DNA of 64,000 bases, from NCBI GenBank assembly GCA_963820525.1, contig CAWGAA010000001.1, positions 1,504,001 through 1,568,000 of the forward strand, given 5' to 3'. The first letter of the stretch is position 1. Each line of letters starts with the position of its first letter. The notes beneath the pieces are model-generated. The model was not told the origin of the DNA. It saw only the letters and a list, made by a program, of their open reading frames with translations, and made no database searches. The stretch comes from an uncultured Spirochaetota bacterium (GTDB lineage: Bacteria > Spirochaetota > Spirochaetia > SZUA-6 > Fen-1364). This document shows, piece after piece, positions 12,995 through 38,500 of the stretch. The position numbers and the translations under genes were made by a program.

Positions 12995-13138
12995 TCGGGA
13001 TGTGAAGGCGGATCGGGCGAGCGCTGGTTTGGCTCGAGCCGCGCTCGCCGGCTCACCGTATTTCAACTGAATCCCCGCGCTCAGATTGCGCGATCCGGCC
13101 GAGAAGCGCGTCGGTGCCCGCAGCGGGCGGGGCGTGTA

Positions 13139-13694
13139 GTGGAAAGACAGACCCTCGCCATCGACTCGGTGAGCGGGGCAACCGTTTCCAGCAAGGCCAT
13201 CCTCAAGGCAGGCGAGAAAGCGCTGGAAAGCGCGGGAATATGCGGGATGGATCGGGGAAGACCTGTCCGCCCCCGCCCTCGACTTCAAGCAGGCGAAAGC
13301 CGAGGACATCGAGGAGGCGGCGACAATCGTTCTTGGCTCGTCAGTGAAAATGGCCCGGCTCACTCTTTCGCCCTGGATCACGGCGAACTGGAATCTCTTG
13401 ATGAAGAAACGGCTCATCCTTTTCTCAGTGTCGGGCACGCCGCCCCAGGAGGAAAAGGCGCTTCGCGGAATCCTCGCCAACAGCCTTACGCCGGAGAAGC
13501 TCCAGCGCATGGAGTATTTCCCCCTGCACGGGAGGCTCCGAATGTCCTCGCTGCCGTTTTTCATGCGGATCCTTATGAAGGCGATGTCGAAAAAAAGTCA
13601 GAAGCAGGGCACGGAAGATAGGCGCATGGCCGAGTTCGACGGAGTCAAACGGCAAAACATTGAACCCGTGGTGCGGGCGGTGGGAGCTGCTTAA
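13139..13694 (+). pseudogene. Fused remnants: FMN-binding domain C-terminus plus N-terminally truncated, frameshifted flavodoxin domain protein
   Basis: IDSVSGATVSSKAILKA followed directly by YAGWIGEDL...IVLGSSVKM...ILFSV spread over different frames. Confidence 0.6.
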
Positions 13695-23902: not shown

Positions 23903-23937
23903 CAAGAGAGGCGAGCTTCCGGCAAATCTTCATTTTC

Positions 23938-23975
23938 AGAAAACCCGTCGGTTCGGCCGGCGGGTTTTCTCTTTG
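23938..23975. terminator. Bidirectional intrinsic terminator
   Basis: AGAAAACCCGTCGG-TTCG-GCCGGCGGGTTTTCT hairpin with T/A tracts on both sides. Confidence 0.8.
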
Positions 23976-24018
23976 TTGGGAACAGAGACGGCCTTGGCGA
24001 ATCACGCCATGACTATGC

Positions 24019-24041
24019 GCGTCCAGCCCGACTCGAACGGG
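24019..24041 (-). repeat. att site: 23 bp duplicate of the tRNA-Arg 3' end (T-arm plus acceptor strand)
   Basis: GCGTCCAGCCCGACTCGAACGGG is identical to 37676-37698. Confidence 0.9.
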
Positions 24042-24046
24042 ACAGT

Positions 24047-24298
24047 TCACGCTTTCGGGTACTTCGTGCCTGTCGGTCCTTGCATCGGATGGTCAACCCT
24101 ATATTGCAGATCATTGATCGCAGTCTCATGGTTAGCCAGGATTTCAATTGCCTCAGTGAATAGCTCGGCTAACAACTCTCTCGACTTATCGGGAAGATCA
24201 TTCTTCATTTCAGTGAATCTCGCTTGTACCAAGTTGTGAAGCGCCCGAATCGAATCTATATTCTGCAGAGACTTTCCTCCTGGGTAGGATTGTACCAT
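24047..24298 (-). CDS. Hypothetical helical protein downstream of hicA
   Basis: ATG with GAGG RBS; same strand as and adjacent to hicA. Confidence 0.55.
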   Translation of the reverse strand: MVQSYPGGKSLQNIDSIRALHNLVQARFTEMKNDLPDKSRELLAELFTEAIEILANHETAINDLQYRVDHPMQGPTGTKYPKA

Positions 24299-24318
24299 GC
24301 CTCGTCCAGGTGGTGAGG

Positions 24319-24546
24319 TTATCGCATCTTTAAAAAAGCTCTTCGTGAAATCCCGGCTTCACGTAATATCGCGCGAAGGGTTCCTTCAGGGATATTGCCC
24401 GGATGATTCGGTACTGTGGTCATTTTCCCTGTTTTCGAACTCCGCCAGATCTCGTGACTGCCCTTTGCCATGCGATCAAATTCGAATCCGCAAGCTTTCA
24501 GACGTCGAGTGGTTTCTGTATAATTAAAGCCGGAGAGCCGTCCCAT
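24319..24546 (-). CDS. hicA: HicA family mRNA interferase toxin
   Basis: GFEFDRMAKGSHEIW..VPNH..GTLRAILREAG. Confidence 0.92.
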   Translation of the reverse strand: MGRLSGFNYTETTRRLKACGFEFDRMAKGSHEIWRSSKTGKMTTVPNHPGNIPEGTLRAILREAGISRRAFLKMR

Positions 24547-24807
24547 CTAGAGGGCGAAGGCTGTATCAACTTCCAGTTTTCCTCGAATGGGCTTAAGAGC
24601 GGGCGGCATCGGATCTCCATGTTCACAACGAGATAGAATGAGTTTTCGAGCAACATCACGAGCGATATCCATGGCCTCTTCGACAGTACTACCCTGGGCC
24701 ACTAGACCGGGCAGATTTTTTGAGGTCGCAAGATATACACCTTCCGGCAGCTTTTCAATATGCAACCGAAGGGTGAATTCGCTTTCTTGGCAGAGATGCT
24801 TGCTCAT
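24547..24807 (-). CDS. hicB: Short HicB-like antitoxin
   Basis: YLATS..LPGLVAQGSTVEEA motif; upstream of hicA. Confidence 0.88.
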   Translation of the reverse strand: MSKHLCQESEFTLRLHIEKLPEGVYLATSKNLPGLVAQGSTVEEAMDIARDVARKLILSRCEHGDPMPPALKPIRGKLEVDTAFAL

Positions 24808-24944
24808 TGTTTAACTTCTCCCCCTTTTAAGATCGGCAAGCCCATTGCACAACTTGTACTACACAAAATGTAACACATCTGTAGGGGAATACAACCCCAC
24901 CACCCCCTACACCCGAATTCGGGGTACTACACCCCTTTTCGTGA

Positions 24945-25304
24945 GGTCTTGACGGCCCAGGTCTGCCAGCGCTCGAGCTCTATCGGCAGGAGATCCCCGA
25001 CACGGAGCTTGACGGACGGCCTGCGAGCAAAGGGCCAAATAGCGGGGTAAGAGGGGTTTACCGCGGAGCGCCTTCAGCTTGGCGCATTCGCTTCCCGTGC
25101 TCCAGAAGGCTCGAAGGAAATCAAGCAGGAGCGGATTCTCCCGGCTCGGGAAGCGGAAAGACGCTCCTTTGCGCGTCGGCGAGCATCGGCCTCGTCATCG
25201 GTGCCGAGAGAGAAGGTCCGAACGTAGCGCCGGGCCTCGGCGCTCTAATACCTGGCGTACCAGGTCGTACCGCGTCGATATAACTGGAAAGGTTCACGCG
25301 CCAT
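24945..25304 (-). pseudogene. N-terminal remnant of a tyrosine integrase
   Basis: Manual translation MAREPFQLYRRGTTWYARY*...SLGTDDEADA, then in a shifted frame LLDFLRAFWSTGSECAKLKALRGKPL; parallels YLLTFWNPAESDYIKSK of the 36361 integrase. Confidence 0.7.
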
Positions 25305-25447
25305 ACTTCCCCCTAGGTGCGACAGTCGAGGGAGACAGCCTCCACGGTCCGCGCGCGCTTCCCGCCGTCCGTGCGGCGAGGTCTTTTGCGATTCCCCGGG
25401 CCCTCAGCGGCGCGCATCGTCAGGAAATCATGAAAAACCCTTCGATC

Positions 25448-25491
25448 GCGTCCAGCCCGACTCGAACGGGCGACCCACAGCTTAGAAGGCT
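25448..25491 (-). repeat. att site: 44 bp duplicate of the tRNA-Arg 3' half through the anticodon loop
   Basis: GCGTCCAGCCCGACTCGAACGGGCGACCCACAGCTTAGAAGGCT is identical to 37676-37719. Confidence 0.95.
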
Positions 25492-25852
25492 TACAGATAT
25501 TCAAACAGTAGTCGGCAGTCACTTTCACCGTTTTGCACAATATCATGGAAAAGCCCGTATTTACAAGGCTTTTTTATAGTTTTCAACAATAGCTGTCCGT
25601 GCTTCGGCGATTGCTTTTCATGTGTTTGCACAAATCCGACGACGACTTGACGACGACCCGCCAACCACCAAAAGCCCATGAAAAAGATTTTCAAAGAAAA
25701 CTGTTGCAAAATATTTTCTAATATGATTTATTTTCTTTGAGGCCGCCACCCCAACCAGAGGCGTCGAAGGGTAAGGGAAACCACGGTGGCCGGGTTTAAG
25801 GCAGGCAGCTCCCCGTGAATGAGCCCTCCAAGCGTTATTTTGGAGGGACACT

Positions 25853-26089
25853 ATGTTCACCTCTATCCCACCTCGGCGGCTCACAATAGAGGAGGCCGCC
25901 AAACGTCTCCACATATCCCGTTCGCTTCTTCAGAAGCTCACGGCAAATGCAGAAATCAGCTCCATCCGTCTCGGGCGCAGGCGCTTTTACGACATAGAAA
26001 CGCTCAAGCGCGAAATAGAGAACAGGGGCCGCCGCGACCGTGTTGACGATCCATCTCGAAAGCAGAGCCAGACAGGTGGTGCGCGATGA
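25853..26089 (+). CDS. Excisionase/AlpA-like HTH protein
   Basis: LTIEEAAKRLHISRSLL..IRLGRRRFY; RBS GGAGG; overlaps the helicase start. Confidence 0.85.
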   Translation: MFTSIPPRRLTIEEAAKRLHISRSLLQKLTANAEISSIRLGRRRFYDIETLKREIENRGRRDRVDDPSRKQSQTGGAR

Positions 26090-27459
26090 GCGACGCCGCC
26101 GCCGAACTTCAATACCCCGAAACTTTCGAGCTGTTCGACCGTCATCCCGAGCTTACAGATATAGGGAATGCAGAGCGATTCGCCACGGTAAACGGGAAAG
26201 ACTTTCGCTGGTGCCCCGCGTGGGGTAAGTGGCTGCATTGGGACGGTGCGCGATGGTGCCCGGATGAGCGGGAGATCACTCTCGACACTGCAATGAAGTT
26301 TATTCGATACTGCCGCGCCATGGCGGAACAGATCGACGACCGAGGGCGCAGAGATGATGTACTCGAAAGCCTCGCAAAATGTGAGTCGCGCTCGAAGCTC
26401 ACTTCGATGATCGAGCTGGTCAAGGCGAAGTTGCCTATTGTGCCCGATGAGCTCGATGAAGATAAAATGGTTTTCAATTGCGCGAACGGGACGCTCGACC
26501 TTCGCAGCGGCGAGATCAGGCAGCATGACCGCGCGGACGGAATCACGAAAGTGTCTCCCGTTTCGTACTCCCCTCTCGCGGAGTGCCCGAAGTGGTTGAC
26601 GTTTCTCGATGAGATCAGCCTCGGCAGGAAGGAGATCGTCGATTTCCTTCAGGCGTTCGTGGGCTACTGTATGACCGGGGAAACACGCGAGCAAGTCTTT
26701 CTCGTTTGCCATGGGCTCGGCCAAAACGGAAAGACTGTTTTCGTGAATACGGTTCTCAACCTTCTCGGCGACTATGGCCGAGAGATGCCAGCGGATCTCC
26801 TGCTTATCAGGAAAAACGAGGGCATTCCCAACGACCTGGCAACCCTTCGCGGACACCGCTTCATAACGTGCGCTGAATCTGAAAGCGGCGCCCGGCTCGC
26901 GGAATCTCGCGTCAAAGCAATGAGTGGGCAGGATGCGATCACGGCCCGCTTCCTGTTTGGGGAATATTTCAGCTTTACGCCGCAGTTCAAGCTCCTCCTC
27001 CGCACTAATCACCGGCCCCGGATCAGGGGATCGGATCATGCGATCTGGAGACGTATCGCGCTCGTGCCCTTTGAGTACCAAGTGCCCCCGGAGAAGCAGA
27101 ATCCGCGTCTCGAAGAAGAGTTGAGGGAGGAGGCGTCTGGTATCCTTCGCTGGGCAGTCGAGGGGTGTCTACGCTGGCAACGCGAGGGACTTGTCCGGCC
27201 AGAGGTTATCAAGGCGGCGACGGAAAGCTACAGAGAGGCCGAGGACATCCTGGGGGATTTTCTGCGGGAAAGGACGACCGCGGACAAGGGTGGCAAGGTG
27301 CAGTCGTCGGTGCTGTATCGCAGTTATGTGAGCTGGACGCAATCGAACGGAGGGCGTCAGATATCTCAAAAGGCGTTCTCTGAAGCGCTGGAAGAGAGAG
27401 GAATGGAGAAAATGACTACGAGAAACGGCGTTTATTGGTTTGGACTGCTCGAAGTGTGA
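26086..27459 (+). CDS. P4-family/D5-like replication protein (D5_N, SF3 helicase, winged helix)
   Basis: TDIGNAERF, NCANGTLDL, Walker A GLGQNGKT, TNHRP and IWRR. Confidence 0.92.
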   Translation: MSDAAAELQYPETFELFDRHPELTDIGNAERFATVNGKDFRWCPAWGKWLHWDGARWCPDEREITLDTAMKFIRYCRAMAEQIDDRGRRDDVLESLAKCESRSKLTSMIELVKAKLPIVPDELDEDKMVFNCANGTLDLRSGEIRQHDRADGITKVSPVSYSPLAECPKWLTFLDEISLGRKEIVDFLQAFVGYCMTGETREQVFLVCHGLGQNGKTVFVNTVLNLLGDYGREMPADLLLIRKNEGIPNDLATLRGHRFITCAESESGARLAESRVKAMSGQDAITARFLFGEYFSFTPQFKLLLRTNHRPRIRGSDHAIWRRIALVPFEYQVPPEKQNPRLEEELREEASGILRWAVEGCLRWQREGLVRPEVIKAATESYREAEDILGDFLRERTTADKGGKVQSSVLYRSYVSWTQSNGGRQISQKAFSEALEERGMEKMTTRNGVYWFGLLEV

Positions 27460-27563
27460 AGGGTGTGAGGGGTGTGAAGGATTGGGCCATTTCTTTCGCG
27501 TATGCAAGACAAGAGATTGATGATAAATAGGGGAACCCTTCACATCCACCACATCCCTCACAG
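27454..27563. repeat. Putative iteron replication origin
   Basis: 3x GTGTGA(A/G)GG (27454-27480) and 3 inverted copies (27537-27563) flanking a 56 bp AT-richer spacer. Confidence 0.75.
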
Positions 27564-27611
27564 AGGGTGCGTGTGCCCTCGGAAGCGAAGGAGTACGACG
27601 GAGCGGAAGGG

Positions 27612-28055
27612 ATGAACACCTTCAAGGCAAAGTGCCGGACGTGCCTGCTCGATATCTCCATGGATCAGGATCCTGTGACGAAGAAATGGCGGCCGGTGGA
27701 CGTGAAGGGCGGGCAAATGCTCGCTCATCGTTGCATTGATACTTTCACGACGATCTGCAAGTTTTGCGGGGAGTCCATTCGATTACACAAAGAGGGAGAG
27801 AAGTGGCTATCATTCCAGCCGGAAGGAGAGTTTCTTCCTCATCGTTGCCGAGAGAAAGCGGAGAGCAAGGCGAAGGAGGAGCGCGAGCTTGCAAGAGCGA
27901 AAAAGGCGCGTCGTGCAGCCTGGCTCGCAGATCACCCCGAAGAGACAGCAAGAGCAGCGGCGCGGCATCGAGTCAAGGAAGAGGTTTCGGAGTATGATGC
28001 GGCTGTTGTGCGCCAGGTCGAGGCGGACGATGGATTTGAGGACGATATCCCGTAG
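27612..28055 (+). CDS. Protein with two CxxC...HRC zinc-finger repeats, a coiled coil and an acidic DDGFEDDIP tail
   Basis: CRTC..W..HRC and CKFC..W..HRC; RBS GGAAGG. Confidence 0.7.
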   Translation: MNTFKAKCRTCLLDISMDQDPVTKKWRPVDVKGGQMLAHRCIDTFTTICKFCGESIRLHKEGEKWLSFQPEGEFLPHRCREKAESKAKEERELARAKKARRAAWLADHPEETARAAARHRVKEEVSEYDAAVVRQVEADDGFEDDIP

Positions 28056-28415
28056 TGAAGGGGGCGCAATTGTGAGCAAGATAGTTTCTAATCCCGAGCC
28101 GGAAAGGAGCAAGCATCCAGCCGAAGACTCCTGGCGAAAGCTAAGGGGAAAAATGGTTACGCTCTGGGCGCGTATGCCGCAGATGAGCTTCATGTTCGAC
28201 GTCCTGAGGCTGCGGCGGATAAAAGGAAAGCGGTCCTTTTGTGCCCGACAAAATGCATCACGTTGCCAAAAGGAAGGACGAAAGAAAACTACCTATAATA
28301 GGAGATTCTCGAAACAAACAACCAAATGAGTGTACTGAAAAAAAGCCAAAGGGTAGTCACTGATAGCTAACTCCAAGCAGGTAAAAACCAACAGAACCCG
28401 GACAACCGCAAAGCG

Positions 28416-28748
28416 ATGGCTAGCCGCAACATAACCTACGATCTGCCAGCGTTGCCGGCGGATCTTGACGCCGAGCTGGAGCGGTAGGCGGTGCTAAAGG
28501 CAGAGGTGCGCAGGCGTCTCGCGGGCGCGGCTGGGATGAGCCGCCCCCATGGGGCCGCGCTGCCCCCTCCCCTCTGCCAGCCCGCTGATTATCCGGAGAC
28601 ATGCTGGCGGTGCGGGCGAGTACTCGGCTCCGACCAAGCGCCAGAGATCCAGGTTGAGGGGGTCATGGTTAAGGTTCACCCTGGTTGTGTGAAGTGGCCA
28701 ACGTTCTCTCGAAACGACGAGGAAGATTTCGACTATCTGCGGTCATGA
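28416..28748 (+). pseudogene. Small CxxC/HxxC protein interrupted by an in-frame TAG (28485-28487), or a shorter ORF from 28491
   Basis: ATG 28416 is in frame with ORF 28491..28748; CWRC...HPGC. Confidence 0.45.
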
Positions 28749-28901
28749 ACCACGAAAGGAAGGGACATTGCTTGCTTTGGGGGGAGAGCTTAACGGGCAG
28801 CCAGCGGCGGCACCAGAGGCAAAAAGGGAGTGGAAAAAGCAGCATTCGAACCCGGACGGAGGCGACTGACCGACGCGGAGTTGTCCACCGGCGCCATGTT
28901 A

Positions 28902-28930
28902 TTGCAGCGCGGACGTGAGGACATTATAAT
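28902..28930 (+). promoter_or_regulatory. Putative sigma70 promoter of the RM operon
   Basis: TTGCAG-17 bp-TATAAT. Confidence 0.55.
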
Positions 28931-28955
28931 GGCAAGGGATACTAAGGGAGCACGA

Positions 28956-30308
28956 ATGCCTGCACGCAAGTACAACGTCGTTTCGCTCTTCTCCGGGGCC
29001 ATGGGCCTCGACATCGGCCTCCAACAGACGGGCCGCTTCCATGTAGTCGCTTGTGTCGAGATAGAGAGTGCCTTCTGCGAGACCATTCGTGTGAACCTAG
29101 CTTCTGGAAGGCTCCACAAAGACGCCAAAGTTTTCGAGGCGGACATTTCCCAACTGGACCCGGAGAAAGTCCTACGGGCCGTCGGCCTGCGTCCTGGCGC
29201 AGTTGATCTGCTCGTTGGAGGACCACCATGCCAATCCTTCAGCACGGCAGGTCGACGCAGAACGACCCAGGATCCCCGTGGCACACTTTTGTGGCAGTTC
29301 TTGCGATTTGTGGCGGCCATAAGACCGCGCTTCTTCTTGATGGAGAATGTCCGGGGGCTCCTGTCCGCGGCCCTGCGGCATCGCCCCATCGCTATGCGGC
29401 CCGAGAAAGGCGGCCCCCCACTCATGCCTGACGAGATGCCCGGATCTGTTGTCAGGCTTTTCGCGGAAGACCTGCAAAGCATCCCCGAAGCCGCGTATCA
29501 CATGGACTGCTTTGAGGTTAACGCAGTCAACTACGGCGCCCCCCAACTCCGCGAACGCGCCCTGTTCATCGGAAACCGGTATGATGTCGCAGTGGATTTC
29601 CCGAACCCCACCCACGCCAATCCCGAGACAATCGGCGGCCAACAAGCGACCCTCTTTGATGAGGCACGTTCATTGTACCGCTGGGCCACTCTTCGCGACG
29701 CTATCGGCGACCTCGATAACCCTGGGGACGTTCTCATGGACTTCAGTCCTCGCAAAAAGCGCTACCTCGCTAAGGTGCCGCCTGGCTCGAACTGGCGGAG
29801 CCTCTCGTTAGAAGACCAGCGCGAGTCCATGGGGCAGGCTTGGCACGCCAAGGGCGGTCGGTCGGGATGGTGGCGCCGCCTAACTTTCGACCTTCCCTGT
29901 CCTACCCTCGTCACGATGCCGAACCATGCCGGTACCTCGCTGTGCCATCCGTCCGAGATCCGGGCCCTCACACTGAAGGAGTACGCCCGAATCCAAGAAT
30001 TCCCTGACGCCTGGGAGTTTAGCGGGACACCGGCCGAACAGTACGCCCAAGTCGGGAACGCCGTCCCGGTCCGCCTTGGTCGAGTTGCCGGAGAAGTAAT
30101 TGCGAAGGAGCTCGACAACCTTCGCGCTCGCAGGTGGCGCCGCGCCGAACAGAAACCGGACTCCTATCGAGTGATCTATGTCCAATCGCACGTGCGCACC
30201 AGGCAGTGGTATAGGGACGGGCAAACTTTCGTCTGGCAAGACGGCGCCGAAAACGGCCAGGCTAGCTACTCTGCGCCCAAGACGAAGCGCAAAGCTAAGG
30301 CACTTTAG
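28956..30308 (+). CDS. dcm: DNA (cytosine-5)-methyltransferase
   Basis: FSGAMG, GGPPCQ, ENV, PQLRER and GNAVP motifs. Confidence 0.96.
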   Translation: MPARKYNVVSLFSGAMGLDIGLQQTGRFHVVACVEIESAFCETIRVNLASGRLHKDAKVFEADISQLDPEKVLRAVGLRPGAVDLLVGGPPCQSFSTAGRRRTTQDPRGTLLWQFLRFVAAIRPRFFLMENVRGLLSAALRHRPIAMRPEKGGPPLMPDEMPGSVVRLFAEDLQSIPEAAYHMDCFEVNAVNYGAPQLRERALFIGNRYDVAVDFPNPTHANPETIGGQQATLFDEARSLYRWATLRDAIGDLDNPGDVLMDFSPRKKRYLAKVPPGSNWRSLSLEDQRESMGQAWHAKGGRSGWWRRLTFDLPCPTLVTMPNHAGTSLCHPSEIRALTLKEYARIQEFPDAWEFSGTPAEQYAQVGNAVPVRLGRVAGEVIAKELDNLRARRWRRAEQKPDSYRVIYVQSHVRTRQWYRDGQTFVWQDGAENGQASYSAPKTKRKAKAL

Positions 30309-30320
30309 CAGGAGAGAACC

Positions 30321-31409
30321 ATGGCACCGAGAAGGAGGAGTGATCTGTTCGATACCCTCCGTGCGCCCAGCCACCGTTTCGAGCCGTCCGAGATCGTCAG
30401 TCTCTTTGGGCAAGTCAGCCAGCGACGCGTCGACGCCATCACCAGCGAGCTGGCTACCTACATCAGAACGAACCTCCCCCTGGCGATCGACCGGCGCGAC
30501 GGCATCGCCGACTACCGAACGAACCCGTACGTTCTCATGACTTCGGCGAGCGTGTTGAACCTCGACGACCCAGGGCGCTTCGCCGATTTCCTGTTTAACA
30601 GCAAGCTCTATATGAGCTTGGAGACCTCGTTCGGCAAATCCGTTGAGGCGACTGTAGTCGGCCACTATCCGATCGTTGGCGACGACAAATGGAAAGATCC
30701 CCCTGAAAAGCTCGCGGAGCTCGCCCAACTTGACGGCTTGTCCAACGAACAGCGTGCCCGCCGACGCACTGCTTCCGCTTGGCGTGAGATCGACAAGTCT
30801 TGCTTCTCGGGACGTCGGCGCTACCTGACTTCCATCAAGAGTGGGCCGAACACCATCAACGACACTCAGGTCCAAGCCATGACCTCAGCCATCATCGACC
30901 ATCACAAAACTTGGGCTACGGAGACGCGCAATTCCTACCCGGGCGTAACGGATCTCGACGTCGTCATTGGGCTCACCTACGGCACGGAGCGCACTACCAA
31001 CAACAAGGAGAACCAGATCCTCGCTAAACTTCTTGAGCACGATTTCGAAGAGGAAGACCGCGCCAATCGGCCTGGGGTCTTGATAGACGTCGCCACCGGG
31101 TCAACCAGAGTCTACCGATGCATCGGAATGCACTTCTGGGCCTTCATGGGCAACCCGTCCGACCCCTCTGCCGCGTCATTTACGTTCCTCGAAATCCTTC
31201 TTGCGCTTGCGAAGGCGCTGTCAACAGGCATTAGCGAGGCCGACTTGGAGACGAGGATCAATAGGAAGCTACAGGCGCTCTCCACGGCGCTTGCGAGTAT
31301 CAAGTTCCCGCGCGGCAGTCTCCCGTCGTGGGTTCGCGAGGCGTTCTCAGAAGGTGAGCTCTTCTGGTTCGCCACCGCAATGACCGCCTTTTTCGATGAG
31401 GGGATCTAA
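30321..31409 (+). CDS. Putative type II restriction endonuclease (PD-(D/E)XK-like, PmeII-like motif)
   Basis: Lies between the MTase and vsr; SLETSFG, EID...SIKSGPNTIN. Confidence 0.7.
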   Translation: MAPRRRSDLFDTLRAPSHRFEPSEIVSLFGQVSQRRVDAITSELATYIRTNLPLAIDRRDGIADYRTNPYVLMTSASVLNLDDPGRFADFLFNSKLYMSLETSFGKSVEATVVGHYPIVGDDKWKDPPEKLAELAQLDGLSNEQRARRRTASAWREIDKSCFSGRRRYLTSIKSGPNTINDTQVQAMTSAIIDHHKTWATETRNSYPGVTDLDVVIGLTYGTERTTNNKENQILAKLLEHDFEEEDRANRPGVLIDVATGSTRVYRCIGMHFWAFMGNPSDPSAASFTFLEILLALAKALSTGISEADLETRINRKLQALSTALASIKFPRGSLPSWVREAFSEGELFWFATAMTAFFDEGI

Positions 31410-31412
31410 GCG

Positions 31413-31869
31413 TTGGAGAAAAGATTGCGGAGGCTTATTCCTGGCGGCTTCAAAGGCCTCTCCCCGCAGCGATCACGTACAATGGCTGCGGTGCGCGGGC
31501 GAAATAATAGGACGACCGAACGGAGACTTCGATACGCTCTCGTGCGTGCCGGTGTCTCAGGCTGGAAACTCCACCCGCCAGACCTCCAAGGCCGACCCGA
31601 CTTCTACTTCCCCGAGAACAGTGTTGCGGTTTTCGTTGACGGCTGCTTCTGGCATGGCTGCCCGCGGTGCGGCCACTACCCGAAGCACAACCAGGAATTC
31701 TGGAGGACCAAGATTGCCCGAAACAAGACCCGTGATCGCGAGACGACCGCCCGCCTACGGGAAGCTCGGCGTAGCTGTTCTGCGGTTCTGGGAACACGAG
31801 CTCTGTGACGACCTCCCGCGTTGCGTGCATAGCGTGCAGAATGCCTTGCACCGGGAGGCGTTGCAATGA
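31413..31869 (+). CDS. vsr: Very short patch repair endonuclease Vsr (apparent +1 frameshift at GGG 31759-31761)
   Basis: RSRTMAAVR, GRPD, FVDGCFWHGC; the C-terminal VLRFWEHEL is in another frame. Confidence 0.9.
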
Positions 31870-32056
31870 CTGTTCCGGGCCTTAGCACGTCCGTCCCGGT
31901 TTTTTAAACCGCGCGGGAGACTGCAGCGGCGGGGGGCGAAGGGGTTCTTATAAAATAATACGGCCGAGACCCGCAGAGCCTCGCCACGGCCCGCCAAGCG
32001 CGCCTGGGGGCCAAAGGTTTGGCGATATTATCCCCTCTCGATTCTCTTTTTTCCGC

Positions 32057-32086
32057 TTGACATTTTACCGACAACCTTATATTGTC
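32057..32086 (+). promoter_or_regulatory. Recombinase promoter overlapped by the inverted repeat GACAA-N7-TTGTC
   Basis: TTGACA at 32057, TATTGT 17 bp downstream; palindrome at 32070-32086. Confidence 0.45.
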
Positions 32087-32134
32087 AGAGCCATGAGAAA
32101 CGGTTCCAGGAGCGGGACCGGGAAGGGGGCTCTC

Positions 32135-33112
32135 ATGACGGGGATACTGATTGACCGGGCGAAGGCGGAGAGGGAGCAGCGGGTCAAGGTTGTGGTGGCG
32201 AAGATCGCGCACGAGGTGCCCGAGCTGGCCGACCTGGACCCCGAAACTCTGGAGAAGGTCGCCCGGGTGGCGATGCTCGATGAAGTGAAAGGCAAGCTGA
32301 GGAAGGCGGCCGAGCTGGAGCGTATCGACTACCAGGGAGAGCGGGAGCGGTTAATTGCCAGGGCGAGCCGCACGGGATCGAAGCGGACGCGGAAGCTGTA
32401 CGCTGCGGCCCTCGACCGGCTGGAGGCGTGGTGCGATCGGCAGGGTATCTCCCCGCTGCAGCTGACCCCGGCCCGGGCTGACGACTGGATTGAGGCGGAG
32501 AAGGCAGAAGGAAGGGCTCCGGCGACAGTGCGCCTGGCCGTGAGCGGTGCCTCCGCGTTCTGGACTTGGATGGAGAGGCGCCACTATGAGCTGCGCAATC
32601 CGTTTCGAGGTACCAGGGCACGGCCGATGAGCAGGCCCGCGCGGAAGCTGGCGCTCCCCTCGGACGTGGAGATCCACGAGCTGGAGGCCTCGGCGAAGCC
32701 AGAGCTACGGGCGGCCATCGTCATAATGTCGCAGGCGGGCCTACGTGTTGGAGGCCTCCCCGGTCTGTCGATCACCGGCTCACGCTGGACCACGACAAGC
32801 AAGGGCAAAGAGCAGAGCGGCAAGGTTCCCGAGGAAGCACGGGCGGCGATCACAAGAGCGGGGCTGTCCCTGCGATTGCCGTTCAAGGCCTTCACGCCGG
32901 AGCAGATAGCGCAGGCCTTCAAGTACCTGGCCGGGAAGCTGCACGCGGCCGGAAAGCTCCAGGCCCGCTACTCCGTCCACGACCTGCGCCACGCCTTCGC
33001 GGTGCGGCTTTATGAAGCAACGCACGATGTCTACCAGGTGGAGAAGGCCCTTGGGCATGCGAACGTGGCCGTCACCGAGGCTTACCTGCGGTCAATCGGC
33101 ATGGAGGGCTGA
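32135..33112 (+). CDS. Xer-like tyrosine recombinase (second recombinase of the element)
   Basis: GLR, SKG, HDLRH, LGH and TEAY catalytic residues; SAM-like core-binding region. Confidence 0.9.
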   Translation: MTGILIDRAKAEREQRVKVVVAKIAHEVPELADLDPETLEKVARVAMLDEVKGKLRKAAELERIDYQGERERLIARASRTGSKRTRKLYAAALDRLEAWCDRQGISPLQLTPARADDWIEAEKAEGRAPATVRLAVSGASAFWTWMERRHYELRNPFRGTRARPMSRPARKLALPSDVEIHELEASAKPELRAAIVIMSQAGLRVGGLPGLSITGSRWTTTSKGKEQSGKVPEEARAAITRAGLSLRLPFKAFTPEQIAQAFKYLAGKLHAAGKLQARYSVHDLRHAFAVRLYEATHDVYQVEKALGHANVAVTEAYLRSIGMEG

Positions 33113-33843
33113 GGCCCAGCCCTCGCGCTGCTCATGAAGAAGAACAAGGTCCGACCGTTCGCTACTGCGCTGCACTCCATCATCCTCATGCTGTCGATGG
33201 AGAGCTGACACTCATCCTCACCACCACCACGCGCACCAACACTCCATCGACGCACAACTATCCGGTACCAGGAGCCAGCCGGTAGTAGCAGCACCATCAC
33301 TCCCTCATCAACTGTGAGCAGGAAGACAAGACGGCACACTCACCACCACCAGATTCCAGCCTCCAGGCCAGCCACCAGCCGCCGGCACAGCAGGGGACAG
33401 CCCCCCTCCCTCGCCCCCCAGGGAGCACGGGGACACCGGGAGGCGCCACCCCCCCTTGGGCCAAGACTGCCCCGGCGAAAATCACTTCATCACCTACACC
33501 ACACCGCGGACCGAAAATTCGGTGTGCAGCACTCAAATGTGCAGCATATTGGTATTGCACGCCCCAGACGCGCGTAGAGGGGTCTAGATTGCATTTTCCT
33601 CCGGGGGTGTGTCCCCATATTCGGCTACAGAGCTGAAGGCAGGGGCGCGCCGCATCCCCCGCGGCCTGCGGGCGGATTCGCCCTGGGGCTCGGCTTTCAC
33701 CGCGGGGCGAAAACACTTACGGCCAATCTGAACGTGGGACACAATACGGTCATGGAGATCCCGTCTGCGGTCCCTGGGGCTTGCAGGGTGACGCCAAAAA
33801 TGAACACAATGAAACGGATTGAAGTAAAGGAGGACAGAAGAAT

Positions 33844-34128
33844 ATGAAAATGTCACTGACGATTGAACAGGGGAAAATACAGATAGAAGCCTTGCTGCGC
33901 AAAGTCGCTGAGGAGCAGGGAGTCAAGGTGGCGGGTGTTCGGTGGCGGCAGGAAACGAGTGACCCGCCGCTGTACTACCTAGAGGCCACCAGCGACACTG
34001 GTAGAACAGACGACATGAAGTTTTCGCCCAAGCATCTGGCTGGCTGCGAGTCGGACAACCAGATGAAGTCTCAAGTACGCATGAAGATTGAGGGCCTCGT
34101 GATAAGGCTGAAAAAGCCTATGCGCTGA
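33844..34128 (+). CDS. Hypothetical protein (cargo 1)
   Basis: ATG with GAGG RBS; 94 aa. Confidence 0.65.
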   Translation: MKMSLTIEQGKIQIEALLRKVAEEQGVKVAGVRWRQETSDPPLYYLEATSDTGRTDDMKFSPKHLAGCESDNQMKSQVRMKIEGLVIRLKKPMR

Positions 34129-34192
34129 AACCGGGATGGCAAAACCATACGGCAAGCCCTCCGCGGATCGCACCACGACCCGCATCTAGCGT

Positions 34193-34369
34193 ATGGTACG
34201 CATTGTCGCAGGGCTGCGGGCGCGCTACTCTGTCCATGATCTGCGCCACGCCTTCGCAGTCAAGCTGTATCAGGAAGGCCGGGATATCTACGCCGTGAGC
34301 AAGGCGCTCGGCCATGCTGGGGTTGCCGTTACGGAGCGCTACTTGCGGTCTCTAAACTTGCTCGATTAG
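34193..34369 (+). pseudogene. Second copy of the recombinase 3' end (58 aa mini-ORF)
   Basis: MVRIVAGLRARYSVHDLRHAFAVKLYQEGRDIYAVSKALGHAGVAVTERYLRSLNLLD*, paralogous to the C-terminus of 32135..33112. Confidence 0.85.
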
Positions 34370-34408
34370 AGGGGAACATGTATAGTCAGTCTGGAAAGGG
34401 GAAAAATC

Positions 34409-34645
34409 ATGAAAGTAAAGGAACTTATAGAACGGCTTCAGAAACTTGATCCAGAGTCAGAGGTGGTTTGCTATTCAGAAGATCCCGCCCTTTTGCCAGA
34501 CGGTTGCGGTTTCGTGCTCTTGGAGATTGAAGACGTGGACGAAAGAGAAGCGAAGCCGATAAGGATCAAAGATAATATCCCATACTTGGATTTTGAATAT
34601 GGCGCTCCTAAGCAGGCCTTAATCAGCGTCACGTCTGATTTTTAA
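34409..34645 (+). CDS. Hypothetical phage-like small protein (cargo 2)
   Basis: MKVKELIERLQKLDPESEV start; RBS. Confidence 0.7.
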   Translation: MKVKELIERLQKLDPESEVVCYSEDPALLPDGCGFVLLEIEDVDEREAKPIRIKDNIPYLDFEYGAPKQALISVTSDF

Positions 34646-34677
34646 GACAGCCTAAGACCTGTAACCGATTAGACACC

Positions 34678-34740
34678 CTTATCAGGAAAGGCCAAGATAA
34701 CGCGGCAGTCACCGAGCGCTATCTGCGGAGCCTGAGGCTG
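34678..34740 (+). pseudogene. Third, internally deleted copy of the recombinase 3' end
   Basis: TATCAGGAAAGGCC matches copy 2; then encodes AVTERYLRSL. Confidence 0.7.
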
Positions 34741-34881
34741 AAATACGCGGGCATCCTACGCTCTACCAGCAAAAAGCAGCGCGGCAGGTGGGGGTGTCGG
34801 ATTATTCATTGACAGGTTATTCGACAAGGGCTATAATTCAATCAGGAAAAAAGATAAATTGTTCACGAGGAGATCAAAGCT

Positions 34882-35190
34882 ATGGCAGAAAACCCTCCCC
34901 AGCCGTCGCAGGCAGCTCCTGTTCCCATGCCGGCTCAACGACTCTTCGAACAAGGCCCAGACGCTGTATCCTTCTACTCGGATCTGGTCCAGGTGCTCAA
35001 CACGGGGTCTGAGGTAGTGTTCCAGTTTTACGAAACCATACCGGGCCCACCGACGAGTCCTGCCGGGCAAATCACTCATGTTAGGACGCGATTACGAGCT
35101 ACCATACAGCTCAGCCCTGGACACGCGCTCAACATCGCCAATAACATCCTCGGACAAATGAGGGTGGCGGCAAACAAACCCGGAGCGTAG
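34882..35190 (+). CDS. DUF3467-like protein
   Basis: FYSDLVQV..T..EVVFQF...ATIQLSPGHA pattern; RBS GAGGAG. Confidence 0.7.
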   Translation: MAENPPQPSQAAPVPMPAQRLFEQGPDAVSFYSDLVQVLNTGSEVVFQFYETIPGPPTSPAGQITHVRTRLRATIQLSPGHALNIANNILGQMRVAANKPGA

Positions 35191-35192
35191 AG

Positions 35193-35663
35193 ATGAAGAT
35201 TACCTTGACGGAATCCTCGATGGCGACAAAATCGGTTATGCTGCAAAAGATTCTCAAGTCGGCTCTTACGAGCGCATCCTCTCCGGCGGAGGTCTTGAAG
35301 CAACTCAGTTCCTACGGCATTGAATGGTATCTGACAGAAAAGGGCACTCTTGCGATCAAATATTGGCAGATCGGTGCTGAGGATTTTGTACGACCAGAGC
35401 AAGTAGCGGCGCTACGTGAGGGTTCAAGCGAGCCGCCCGAAGCAGATGCTCTCGAATGGGTGAGCAAGAACCTTCCCGATCTTAGAAATCAGTATCCAGG
35501 GAAATGGGTAGCTGTCGTTGACAATTGGGTCGCCTGTTCCGCAGACGACCTTCCGTCACTTATGAGGCAACTCAGTGAAGAAGGGGTTGAACGACCCTTC
35601 ATCACGCAGATCCCGACTCACGAGATTGTCTGGACAACCACCTATGCCTACAAAGGACTTTGA
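35193..35663 (+). CDS. DUF5678-like protein with N-terminal extension
   Basis: LRNQYPGKWVAVVD..V..DDL..L...G..P.I..IP pattern. Confidence 0.75.
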   Translation: MKITLTESSMATKSVMLQKILKSALTSASSPAEVLKQLSSYGIEWYLTEKGTLAIKYWQIGAEDFVRPEQVAALREGSSEPPEADALEWVSKNLPDLRNQYPGKWVAVVDNWVACSADDLPSLMRQLSEEGVERPFITQIPTHEIVWTTTYAYKGL

Positions 35664-36087
35664 ACGAACGGTTCAATTCTACTCATTCACTGATCCAAAT
35701 GGGAAAACCATTTCTTTCCCCCTCGTCGTAGTCAATCTGATTCAAACGGGGGGAACCAGGGTATCACTGTCTCTTCTGTTCGACACCGGCGCGAGCGTAA
35801 CTTCTCTTCGTCGGGACTTGTATCCGTTGCTTGGACTAACTTCGTGGGATGCTGGAGCGCTCCAGCAATCTCAGACTGCCGGATGCGATGCGCCAGTAGA
35901 TGGTTACCGGTATGAAGGAATTGCACTGGAAGTTTTCGGGAAAGTGATAACCTGTCCCGTTCACCTAATCAAAATGCCGCAGAATCCGTTATTTGTTGGT
36001 CTGCTTGGCAGAGACACTGTGTTTCAGGAGTTCGGCTTTGGCTTTTGGGAAGGGACCAGGGAACTGCATGTAACATGCACGCCATAA
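35644..36087 (+). CDS. Retropepsin-like (clan AA) aspartic protease
   Basis: LFDTGAS catalytic motif and GLLGRD motif; overlaps the DUF5678 stop. Confidence 0.85.
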   Translation: MPTKDFERTVQFYSFTDPNGKTISFPLVVVNLIQTGGTRVSLSLLFDTGASVTSLRRDLYPLLGLTSWDAGALQQSQTAGCDAPVDGYRYEGIALEVFGKVITCPVHLIKMPQNPLFVGLLGRDTVFQEFGFGFWEGTRELHVTCTP

Positions 36088-36120
36088 ATGTGCCTGCGCT
36101 TGTTTCGTCGAACGTCTGAA

Positions 36121-36253
36121 TTACTCTCCCGAGCCTTCTGGAAGTCGATTTCCTTCCCCGCGTCGTAAAGGTCCGTCATTTTCGCAGTGCGATGGCCGGT
36201 GAAGCGCCGGAGAACCGCTTCGGGGGATAGAGCCCCGGGAGTTGAGTGTTATA
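36121..36253 (-). pseudogene. C-terminal remnant of another tyrosine integrase
   Basis: Manual translation YNTQL/PEAVLRRFTGHRTAKMTDLYD (GH...Y box) with frameshifts. Confidence 0.65.
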
Positions 36254-36360
36254 CTAGTAGCGAAGGCTGTGGAATATGATAGCGCTTTAAATAGCCTATC
36301 AGGCTGATCTCCCCTGTTGTCCCGTAAACATTTAGCCTCTGTCCGTCGGCGAGAACGTCG

Positions 36361-37557
36361 TCACTGCGCCTTCTTGAACGGCAGTATCTTCGCCTGGACC
36401 TTCCGCAGCGCCGCGCGGTCTGCGTTCGTGACGTGCTGGTATCCTTCCGTCGTTTCAAGGTTCGTATGGCCGATGAAGTCCTTCAGGGCGGCTGCACTAA
36501 GTCCCGTCGAATGAGAAACGAGACTGTGGCGGAAACTGTGGAACGTCCGACCGCCTGGGAGCTTCGCCGCCTTCATCGCACGCTTGAACGCCTTTTCAAG
36601 CCCCGTCCGCCCGATAGGGATTGAAGGATCATCCGTGTTGAAGAATACGAAATCATCCGGGCGAGCTCCCCACCGGTGGATCGCCAACACTTCTCGGATC
36701 GCATCCGCCACAGTATCGGGGAGCTCGATCCCGAGCCGTTCGCTGCCCCACTTCGGCGGCTTTGATCCTTCCACGTCTTGCCAGCTTGTCACCACGTCGA
36801 GATAGCTTTTCTTCTTGGCAAGGTGGATGTTCTTGACAAGGAGCCCGCGGACTTCCCCCATCCTCATGCCGGTGGTAGCTGAGAGAAGGCAAGCGGTTTT
36901 ATAGCGGATATCCGGCCAGTCAACGGCCCAAAGCCTCGCGTATTCGTCGAGCTGGAATATCTGCCGCTTCTCTGGAGTCTCATGGACAGACTTCACTCCC
37001 TGCCCCGGATGGTACGGGAGAAGCCCCACGTCTACAGCATGTCGGAGCGGAACGAAAAGGGCTTGGCGCGCCATGTTCAAGGTCCGAGGGGAAATCTTTC
37101 CCGGAGTGACATAGGTTTCGTATGTCTCGACGCGCCAGGAGAGAAGGATCTTCCGGTTGAGATCCGCAAGCTGTACGATCCCGCGCGCCTTAAGCCAGGG
37201 GAGAACGTAGGTTTCAAGAAGCCGTAGGTTATTTGCGCAGTATGCCACAGAGATAGAACGACCTTCCTGGACCTTGCTTTTTATGTAGTCTGACTCTGCG
37301 GGATTCCAGAACGTGAGAAGATAGTCGCGGATCCCGCTCTTGCTGGCGAAGACTTCCCCCTTCTCGATCATCTGGTTGGCAACTTTACGCGCGAGCGCAA
37401 TATTCCCGGTGTCCGTCGAACGGACCGCCCGATAGCGGCGCCTCCCGTTTTTGCCTACCAAGTCAGAGAGAAACCCGACGTAGTAGATGGGCTTTCCTTT
37501 CTTGCTCTTGCGCTTGAGTAGGTGAAACTCTACGTCGCCGAAACTATAGTTTTGCAT
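36361..37557 (-). CDS. int: Tyrosine integrase of the element
   Basis: TGMRMGEV, PK, FHSFRH, IGH and TEGY; adjacent to att/tRNA. Confidence 0.95.
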   Translation of the reverse strand: MQNYSFGDVEFHLLKRKSKKGKPIYYVGFLSDLVGKNGRRRYRAVRSTDTGNIALARKVANQMIEKGEVFASKSGIRDYLLTFWNPAESDYIKSKVQEGRSISVAYCANNLRLLETYVLPWLKARGIVQLADLNRKILLSWRVETYETYVTPGKISPRTLNMARQALFVPLRHAVDVGLLPYHPGQGVKSVHETPEKRQIFQLDEYARLWAVDWPDIRYKTACLLSATTGMRMGEVRGLLVKNIHLAKKKSYLDVVTSWQDVEGSKPPKWGSERLGIELPDTVADAIREVLAIHRWGARPDDFVFFNTDDPSIPIGRTGLEKAFKRAMKAAKLPGGRTFHSFRHSLVSHSTGLSAAALKDFIGHTNLETTEGYQHVTNADRAALRKVQAKILPFKKAQ

Positions 37558-37674
37558 AGCTCTCTCCTTCCGGTGAAAGCGTGACGACTACCTGACGACT
37601 AAAAGCTATTTTGGCCTCTTCTGTAGGAAAGTCACTATATTTGCAAGTATTTGCAAAGAAAGGAAATAACCTTT

Positions 37675-37748
37675 TGCGTCCAGCCCGACTCGAACGGGCG
37701 ACCCACAGCTTAGAAGGCTGTTGCTCTATCCAGCTGAGCTATGGACGC
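37675..37748 (-). tRNA. tRNA-Arg(TCT)
   Basis: Reverse complement GCGTCCATAGCTCAGCTGGATAGAGCAACAGCCTTCTAAGCTGTGGGTCGCCCGTTCGAGTCGGGCTGGACGCA forms a cloverleaf. Confidence 0.97.
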
Positions 37749-37751
37749 ATG

Positions 37752-37824
37752 TCGGGATGAGTGGATTCGAACCACCGCTCTCCTGCTCCCAAAGCAGGCG
37801 CCTTAGCCGCTAGGCTACATCCCG
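37752..37824 (-). tRNA. tRNA-Pro(TGG)
   Basis: Reverse complement CGGGATGTAGCCTAGCGGCTAAGGCGCCTGCTTTGGGAGCAGGAGAGCGGTGGTTCGAATCCACTCATCCCGA. Confidence 0.96.
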
Positions 37825-37906
37825 AAGGCGAGCGCAAGCGATCGGCGGCGAAAGAGCCGCCCAAGGCCGCCGCTTTCCACGGACTCCAGCGCTTTCCCGA
37901 ACACGA

Positions 37907-37935
37907 AATGTACGGCTTTTGGGGGAGGCGGTCAA
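37907..37935 (-). promoter_or_regulatory. Putative promoter of the tRNA-Pro/tRNA-Arg operon
   Basis: TTGACC-17 bp-TACATT on the minus strand. Confidence 0.55.
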
Positions 37936-38047
37936 TCGTCGGCGGCTCGGCGCGGCTGTCCTGCGGCTCGGCGCCGAGCCGTCGTGGGGCGGCGCTTCAG
38001 GGATTGGCATCGCGCCAGCACGAGCGAAACGCTGGGCGCTTTCCCCC

Positions 38048-38500
38048 TTACTCGTCGCCGGAGATGGCCCGCAGGAACCGGCCGCGATCGGCTCCTTCCT
38101 TGAGCACCACGAGCAGGGTATCGTCTCCGCCCACGGTCCCGATCACTTCGGGGATGTTCAAAAGATCGATTGCGTAGGCGATCCCGGGAGCGTGGCCCAT
38201 CTTTGTCTTCACGACGGCCAGATTCCCGGAAAAATGGATGCCCGTGATCTCCCTGTGCAGATCGTCGCGGATGAAGGGGTCCTGTGTCGGCTCTTTTGGA
38301 GGGTCAACGGTATAGAGGTACTCGCCGTTGGTGTCCGGCACCCGGGCGACGCTCAAGAACTTCAGATCCCGGGAGAGAGTCGCCTGCGTCACGTCGACTC
38401 CCTCCTGCTCCAGGCGCTTGAGCAGTTCCTCCTGGCTGTGGATCCGCTCCGCATGGAGGATGTTATGGATCAGACGCCGTCTCGATTCCTGGCTTTTCAG
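38048..38500 (-). CDS. argR: Arginine repressor (probable CTG start)
   Basis: SQEELL, TQATLSRDL and GTVGGDDT; GGAGG 7 nt before CTG; in-frame TAA just upstream. Confidence 0.92.
   Translation of the reverse strand: MKSQESRRRLIHNILHAERIHSQEELLKRLEQEGVDVTQATLSRDLKFLSVARVPDTNGEYLYTVDPPKEPTQDPFIRDDLHREITGIHFSGNLAVVKTKMGHAPGIAYAIDLLNIPEVIGTVGGDDTLLVVLKEGADRGRFLRAISGDE

Follow-up and report, generated by a model that had tools for sequence, protein, structure and literature searches.

Background

Genomic islands at tRNA genes grow by tandem accretion of integrative and conjugative or integrative and mobilizable elements (ICE/IME), and their decay leaves cis-mobilizable remnants (CIMEs). The chromosomal integrons of Treponema are same-orientation arrays with the parts IntI, attI and attC cassettes. 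At icd, e14 and phage 21 insert into the 3′ end of a gene and a substitute 3′ end is supplied. Here we analyse a 64,000-nt stretch of an uncultured Spirochaetota genome (GCA_963820525.1, contig CAWGAA010000001.1, positions 1,504,001 to 1,568,000; hereafter the window), in which an intact tyrosine recombinase gene, rec, is followed on the same strand by a series of short remnants of the 3′ ends of related genes (tails), each of them followed by co-oriented genes. Two related papers deal with the accretion of integrative elements at tRNA genes (PMC5704250, PMC7563491), and another describes, for archaea, SSV-type "suicidal" integrases that disrupt their own gene (PMC7253208).

The window shares with the tRNA islands the tRNA 3′ repeats of more than one length, the integrase by the tRNA, the stacked foreign modules of differing GC content, the integrase pseudogene pieces and the surviving passenger genes. 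It differs in that the stacking is marked by 3′ tails of the Xer-like rec, with no att repeats between the modules, and in that all modules are very small (0.3-1.4 kb). As in the integrons, a tyrosine recombinase is followed by co-oriented small promoterless open reading frames (ORFs) of unrelated function, and this in a spirochaete; but rec stands outside the IntI family (29 bits against a cutoff of 265), the array is absent at 42 other rec loci and a consensus promoter of its own precedes the last module. The likeness to icd lies in a displaced 3′ fragment whose differences from the working copy are mainly synonymous, whereas the target here would be the recombinase gene of another mobile element, the bodies lack an integrase and no chimerism of the intact gene is detectable. 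The SSV-type integrases likewise leave integrase fragments at element borders and have a preferred break inside the ORF, but rec is usually intact when integrated, no pairs of N- and C-terminal pieces were found and the host is bacterial. We consider it probable that the array consists of accretion and deletion scars of several integrative elements in a tRNA-Arg island.

Recombinase tails in a tRNA-Arg island

The array lies inside a 12.2-kb island at a tRNA-Arg gene, edged by 44-nt direct repeats (Table 1). A second, shorter repeat of 23 nt lies beyond the 44-nt one, so this tRNA must have been the target of two or more separate integrations. The start of the island integrase is 117 nt from the tRNA-Arg, and with this adjoining integrase and the tRNA repeat at the far end the window fits a tRNA-integrated island with a P4-type integrase. 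The Rfam search over 23500-38500 returned only the two tRNAs above threshold.

The rec ORF occupies 32057/32135-33112 on the plus strand and its product has the C-terminal end ...HDLRHAF...LGHANVAVTEAYLRSIGMEG, directly followed by the stop codon. Three remnants of rec 3′ ends are present downstream, all on the plus strand, so that along the DNA one meets the intact gene, a 45-nt frameshifted piece (33749-33793), a 157-nt in-frame piece (34213-34369) and a 47-nt piece (34698-34744). The three tails are separated from the next co-oriented gene by 52, 39 and 137 nt, respectively. Their starts correspond to different codons of rec (~272, ~310 and ~313 for the 157-, 47- and 45-nt pieces), and a search of the whole genome gave no 5′ partner for any of them.

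Using a DNA profile of 21 rec-family 3′ ends, we recovered the 157-nt piece as a match at 34213-34370 with an E value of 1.1e-35, and Pfam Phage_integrase matches it at 6.3e-11. Its identity to intact rec is 71 % over 138 nt. The 49 aligned codons comprise 18 identical ones, 17 with synonymous differences only and 14 with non-synonymous differences, giving a non-synonymous rate (dN) of 0.25, a synonymous rate (dS) of 1.21 and a dN/dS of 0.21; all 11 invariant residues of the segment (11/11) are retained. By this dN/dS and the 11 invariant residues, the piece is derived from a different rec gene, on which selection acted up to the time of its truncation. The dS of 1.21 argues that intact rec and the 157-nt piece are not a recent local duplication.

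The 47-nt piece was recognised by nhmmer with an E value of 9.6e-7 in 4.5 kb and 1.2e-4 in the 580,694 nt of the window and related loci together; elsewhere in these 580,694 nt no short rec tails were found. For the 45-nt piece the DNA profile alone gave an E value of 0.087. Its alignment score is 43, against 25.3 ± 2.4 (maximum 33) for 200 shuffles, of which none reached 43 (0/200), and we regard it as a probable further rec copy that extends through the stop codon. Judging by their sequences, the remnants trace back to three or more additional rec genes that belong to different lineages and were each functional up to their truncation.

Two intact recombinase genes converge on the interval 33113-36360, in which rec tails and a P4-like integrase tail are both present. 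Besides rec, two recombinase families have left scars in it, namely this P4-like tail and a motif that we call X. The P4-like tail (36129-36280) shows 75-81 % nucleotide identity to the 3′ ends of three full genes (L069, L074 and L075) and 84 % over 32 aa in tblastn.

Much of this had been seen in the initial annotation of the stretch, made from the letters alone. It had named a Xer-like recombinase ending in HDLRHAF at 33112, a diverged copy of its 3′ end (placed at 34193-34369), a third copy (placed at 34678-34740), one strand for all of them, unrelated cargo after each (ORFs of 94 and 78 aa, then a three-gene operon) and a divergence too deep for a recent local duplication. We found all these claims to hold, with the limits of the two copies adjusted as given above and with homologues for both small ORFs. 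The 45-nt piece and the P4-like tail are additions to that annotation.

Cargo between and after the tails

Both small ORFs, orf94 and orf78, are real genes with homologues elsewhere. The homologue of orf94 in genome G024 is 91 % identical in nucleotides and 87 % in amino acids (dN/dS 0.45); the homology begins at 33820, i.e. past the tail, and in G024 an X-like motif lies upstream. The homologue of orf78 in genome G014, 54 % identical in amino acids (dN/dS 0.36), is found downstream of two P4-like integrases. Neither the orf94 homologue in G024 nor the orf78 homologue in G014 is accompanied by a rec tail, and the two ORFs gave no match in Pfam, NCBIfam or PADLOC.

Since the three-gene operon has its own promoter with 12/12 matches, it needs no upstream platform. 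Its DUF5678 protein was not found among the other 91 genomes of the order. GC content drops from ~0.66 in rec to ~0.50 over 34200-36200, the operon having ~0.51. The cargo and restriction genes of the window other than the aspartyl protease had no match in 20 related loci at E 1e-3, and the surroundings of rec contain nothing that is conserved.

The spacer behind rec (33113-33748) has no DNA match among the other 91 genomes of the order. The part at 33135-33580 opens with MKKNKVRPFATALHSIILMLSMES and a stop, and continues in a frame rich in Ser, Thr, Pro and His; the ORF from 33135 may be a decayed gene for a signal-peptide protein (secreted or lipoprotein).

The rec family

In an alignment of 26 sequences, with the window gene as the first row, the ATG at 32135 coincides with the start of the homologues and all 36 invariant columns are present in rec. 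R204, K223, R285, H286, H308 and Y317 of rec are invariant and H282 is nearly so; rec is thereby predicted to carry the catalytic set of the tyrosine recombinase superfamily (R, K, H-x-x-R, H, Y). Against the XerC/XerD equivalog models of NCBIfam it reaches 64.4 and 53.3 bits, below the respective cutoffs of 335 and 330, which leaves it outside both, and the name XerD on its homologues in public records is automatic annotation only. It is also outside the integron integrases, with 29.2 bits for TIGR02249 (cutoff 265) and 19.1 for NF011946 (cutoff 435).

The family is large and unstudied. Scoring of 8,000 candidates gave 194 proteins at E ≤1e-5, automatically named XerD or integrase, from metagenome-assembled genomes (MAGs) of Spirochaetia, Spirochaetaceae and Treponema from peat, fen, sediment and termite gut. 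It occurs in 20 of the 25 genomes of the taxonomic family, the window genome counted. The search of the window genome itself gave two strong matches; the other five are at most 38 % identical, so there is no further close copy.

We looked for traces of recombination or of an embedded site within the gene. Identity of intact rec to its nearest relative is 78 % on one side of the preferred breakpoint described below and 79 % on the other, so chimerism is not detectable. In 30 rec genes the relative entropy of synonymous sites at the 3′ end is about equal to the mean over the whole gene (0.71), with the minimum reached by windows at codons 29-79; the synonymous sites of these genes thus offer no hint that the rec tail contains a conserved DNA site.

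Regarding the limits of the element that carries rec, lineages at 70-76 % nucleotide identity are homologous from the ATG to just before the stop and nowhere outside. Two loci of one genome, L037 and L038, share 2,578 nt at 98.7 % identity; their homology stops 58-64 nt past the rec stop, where the end of the shared DNA adjoins a chromosomal deformylase gene. In this pair rec is thus the last gene of its element. Neither an att core nor convincing direct repeats that would delimit rec-type elements were found in the window, L037 or L038, and the regions downstream of four rec stops have no motif in common.

In L038 (2659-12901), moreover, a 9-kb stretch that encodes ParA, a replication-type protein with HTH_36 and a BrnT toxin is flanked by two rec-family genes on one strand, with 58 % and 38 % identity to the window gene. 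The arrangement is either a tandem pair or an integrative element that resembles a plasmid. In two loci rec directly adjoins restriction-modification genes (L040 5498-10112 and window 28830-33112); these are of type I (HsdS/HsdM) in genome G002, and of type II with Vsr in the window.

Motif X and the intY family

X consists of two boxes, ACGGCA ... ACGGCCCGCCACG, over ~35 nt. It is single in the window genome and was found in six places in 5 of the 25 family genomes. In 6 of 11 loci X sits 4-6 nt past the stop of a gene for a 277-aa Xer-like integrase of a third family, which we call intY and which has at least nine diverged copies in genome G016. It also stands alone before promoter-like DNA and lipoprotein or ankyrin genes. 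The loci with X are the window, L108/L079, L109, L110, L113, L114, L135, L076, L078, L081, L058, L009 and L148. X is probably part of the attachment site of an undescribed element family.

Two further ideas about X were dropped. A hairpin or attC-like fold was rejected, as RNAalifold gave three invariant pairs, no covariation and -1.25 kcal/mol. A crossover between the 3′ box of X and the preferred breakpoint of rec was rejected for the window, where both are present, 27 nt apart.

Homologous loci and distribution of breakpoints

Loci were collected (20 + 8 from related genomes, 26 from the species-genome collection and 80 from metagenomes), scanned in six frames with the hidden Markov model (HMM) of the family and freed of duplicates; the relatives are all MAGs or short metagenome contigs. 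The survey yielded 62 distinct full-length rec genes, of which 43 had 1 kb or more of downstream sequence. A strong same-strand tail within 6 kb was seen at one of the 43, which is the window itself (87 bits). Two other loci had matches of 16-24 bits that correspond to the conserved box of other integrase families. In L148, with 636 nt downstream only, the surroundings hold an intY-family remnant together with an X-like motif, and besides these a small ORF and part of yet another integrase, so that it is another junkyard with no rec array. Isolated rec tails followed by co-oriented genes do occur, with ankyrin genes in L050 and L052 and a kinase gene in L046; because related ankyrin genes are common to L050 and L052, the two may represent one event.

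Truncated copies are unevenly distributed. Among 94 distinct chains there are 14 internal copies without the 5′ part against 3 without the 3′ part, and contig ends cut off a further 8 (5′ part missing) and 6 (3′ part missing). The P4-like integrases show full genes with same-strand tails, both in the window (36129-36280 beside 36361-37557, a different integrase) and in L074, where a full 288-aa P4-like integrase has a tail ~1 kb downstream (13102-13194). Contig 2 of the window genome has two more 5′-truncated P4-like copies (L072 7459-7947 and L073 7335-7457). Integrase genes of two unrelated families thus appear to leave 3′ tails here much more often than 5′ pieces.

The breakpoints in rec, listed from HMM coordinates mixed with manual reading, have a hot spot at residues 272-278, which corresponds to window 32948-32968 and lies just upstream of the YSVHDLRH box. 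Fragments start at ~272-273 in the window (the 157-nt piece), L046 and L044, as does the rejoined 3′ side of L047, and residue 278 is the last one of a 5′ fragment in L048. One recombinase family would thus have been broken repeatedly within a stretch of seven codons. The conserved block ARYSVHDLRH begins at the hot spot and could draw alignment edges there. In L046 another integrase gene stops 22 nt before the rec tail that starts at ~273, and because the DNA upstream can be identified (X in the window, the stop of the other integrase in L046) the breaks at these two junctions are taken as real. A second small cluster, at residues 248-250, is made up of L050, L052 and L043 and may be partly one event.

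The relatives also hold frameshifted and internally deleted rec copies. In L045 (8669-9254) what is left of rec begins with residue 149, at a distance of 12 nt from tRNA-Arg(CCG), and the related locus L039 (3225-9705) has, at the same kind of site, the tRNA, an integrase, ~4 kb of cargo and a full rec; by this comparison L045 looks like plain deletion debris. The HtrA-like protease gene that flanks the island of the window also flanks this site in L039.

Origin of the array

We favour, as the probable origin of the array, accretion followed by deletion in the tRNA-Arg island. Elements with different rec genes, and others with other integrases, would have landed in or recombined into the island successively, and rec-bearing elements or pieces of them may have ended side by side. 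Deletions would then have taken the promoters and 5′ parts. Promoterless 3′ tails are presumably inert and would persist, whereas 5′ fragments still expressed as DNA-binding stubs may disappear or be removed by selection. As surviving passengers there would be the small ORFs and the operon with its own promoter. The clustering at 272-278 suggests that some breaks come from a site-preferring event, perhaps the insertion of intY-family elements into rec; the two informative junctions (window and L046) have different left partners.

With this account, two further claims of the initial annotation can be judged. It had proposed modules stacked by an integron-like capture with the recombinase 3′ end as the junction; the material does seem to come from related elements (dN/dS 0.21 for the 157-nt piece), but the capture mode is not borne out. 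Decay was said to rise with distance from the intact gene, and the actual order contradicts this, because the in-frame 157-nt piece lies farther from intact rec than the 45-nt piece with its indel, and only then comes the 47-nt piece. The comparison of homologous loci that it had proposed found repeated 3′ fragments at 1 of 43, in the window only. As to the common crossover point that was to be looked for, the window tails themselves start at ~272, ~310 and ~313, while breakpoints across the family cluster at 272-278; random breakpoints, which were to speak for ordinary debris, are therefore only part of the picture, four starts and one end falling into 272-278.

Several observations weigh against accretion and deletion as the full account. 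All three remnants keep their 3′ end and have a co-oriented gene within 40-140 nt, which random deletion would not be expected to produce thrice. To explain this we infer survivorship or selection against 5′ stubs. In a less biased search of whole genomes the bias of 3′ over 5′ pieces, as read from the rows, falls to ~2 to 1. The seven-codon cluster, in a scan-statistic simulation, has P 0.046 for 4 of 16 starts and P 0.006 for 5 of 18 breakpoints, and the site-preferring event at 272-278 lacks a name in the account of accretion scars. With neither an att core nor direct repeats found for elements of the rec type, their tandem placement is conjectural, and lineages at 70-76 % nucleotide identity share only the rec ORF, which gives the element carrying rec no visible limits.

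Two other accounts give the hot spot a role, and we hold both to be unlikely. In the first, the rec tails would be docking arms of recombinase-free cargo units that intact rec moves in trans, with a crossover at 272-278. Such a gene-capture platform would have the 3′ end of its own recombinase gene as attachment site, would resemble an integron in function though not in construction, and would be rare or short-lived in most genomes; we doubt it. In the second, other elements would attach at the conserved 3′ part of rec, restore the gene and push the old tail downstream, so that each tail would be preceded by the body of an inserted element. A like logic at a tRNA target is seen in the two tRNA-Arg repeats (44 and 23 nt), and this reading would make sense of the integrase that stops 22 nt before the ~273 tail in L046, of the X that abuts the ~272 tail in the window in its role as a follower of intY, and of the L048 5′ fragment that ends at residue 278. 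What makes it improbable is that intact rec has no clear chimerism (78 % vs 79 %), that the left partners at the two junctions differ and offer no common element arm, that the bodies between the tails are of 0.3-0.6 kb and have no integrase, that the 42 other loci have no arrays and that matching 5′ halves are not found in the window genome.

Capture of cassettes in the form first proposed is very doubtful. Intact rec would take up circular units of tail plus cargo at a site in its own 3′ end, with proximal entry and no attC. The tidy arrangement of the array speaks for it: one strand, remnants that reach the end of the gene, co-oriented genes after 52, 39 and 137 nt, and differences between tails that are mostly synonymous. 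Lone tails before co-oriented genes recur as well (ankyrin in L050 and L052, kinase in L046), and the breakpoints cluster at 272-278. But the recurrence is reduced if L050 and L052, with their related ankyrin genes, are one event, and just 1 of the 43 full-length homologues has a tail. The single array has three different tail starts, and its decay is not graded with distance. The homologues of orf94 and orf78 have no tails, and the 91 %-identical homology begins at 33820, past the tail. Moreover, the 3′ end shows no synonymous-site constraint in the 30 genes, and rec reaches 29 bits on the integron-integrase model with its cutoff of 265. Inverted repeats of attC type with both arms at or between the junctions were not found in 33113-34900, nor a shared motif by eye, no dedicated attC model having been run.

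Hardly credible is an SSV-type arrangement, with an att site inside the rec ORF so that integration splits the gene into 3′ and 5′ end pieces: 3′ pieces start and one 5′ piece ends at 272-278, as it predicts, but there are 62 distinct full-length rec genes, many of them on long chromosomal contigs, the homology of L037/L038 ends ~60 nt past the stop and so outside the gene, the window tails have no 5′ partner in the whole genome, and no locus has 3′ and 5′ pieces around one body.

If accretion and deletion is the right account, the array is an ordinary product of island growth and decay in an uncultured freshwater-sediment spirochaete and adds one well-resolved example. It is also a caution that neatly repeated units of tail and gene can come about in the absence of a dedicated capture system. 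Should the excess of 3′ tails or the seven-codon break site prove site-specific, it would bear on how passenger genes are transferred between mobile elements.

Other features of the island

The features of the island and its surroundings are collected in Table 1.

Table 1. Features annotated in the window (positions counted from its first nucleotide)
Feature	Position	Strand	Evidence or remark
23-nt partial copy of the tRNA-Arg 3′ part, older island boundary	24019-24041		exact k-mers to 37676-37698
Exact direct repeat (44 nt) of the 3′ half of tRNA-Arg, far end of the island	25448-25491		100 % to 37676-37719
D5_N / DUF5906 / Pox_D5 primase-helicase-like gene	26086-27459	+	Pfam D5_N 3.8e-32
Restriction-modification block: C5 cytosine methylase, EcoO109I-like endonuclease, Vsr	28830-31808	+	Pfam 1.6e-53, 2.9e-7, 2.2e-15
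Promoter-like site upstream of rec	32057-32085	+	10/12 matches
rec, intact tyrosine recombinase gene (325 aa)	32135-33112	+	Pfam Phage_integrase 1.1e-12
C-rich spacer without intact gene	33113-33748		ORF list, composition
Probable rec remnant, codons ~313 to stop, one indel	33749-33793	+	local alignment to L040 3′ end
orf94, 94-aa ORF	33844-34128	+	begins 52 nt past the 33749-33793 tail
X motif unit, core 34149-34183 (35 nt)	34143-34200	+	abuts the 5′ break of 34213-34369
rec remnant, residues ~272-325 and stop, frame intact, 157 nt	34213-34369	+	nhmmer, Pfam
orf78, 78-aa ORF	34409-34645	+	homologue in G014
rec remnant, codons ~310-324, 47 nt	34698-34744	+	nhmmer
Consensus sigma-70 promoter, TTGACA-17-TATAAT	34809-34837	+	12/12; 45 nt before the operon
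Three-gene operon: DUF3467-like (weak), DUF5678, retropepsin-like aspartyl protease	34882-36087	+	Pfam
Retropepsin-like aspartyl protease	35644-36087	+	Pfam
3′ tail from a second family of P4-like integrases, ~aa 221-270 of 288	36129-36280	-	nucleotide comparison and tblastn
Intact P4-type island integrase (398 aa)	36361-37557	-	Pfam Phage_integrase 6.3e-19
tRNA-Arg(TCT), integration site	37674-37749	-	ARAGORN; Rfam 67.7 bits
tRNA-Pro, after tRNA-Arg	37751-37824		

The runs listed for this DNA are three DNA runs of one study, with no RNA run among them. Their contigs, probably from the source sample, are co-linear with 33778-34762 and show no joints; at a depth of 2-6 they are uninformative on excision. 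Ankyrin-repeat genes, some with signal peptides, recur behind intact rec, behind its tails or behind the unit of intY and X (L050 1-1094, L052 3605-4935, L036 8615-12679 and L079 1497-2995). Within the older 1.4-kb island remnant (24041-25448), 24526-24771 is 66 % identical to L073 7974-8221, a segment of contig 2 that adjoins a P4-like integrase tail.

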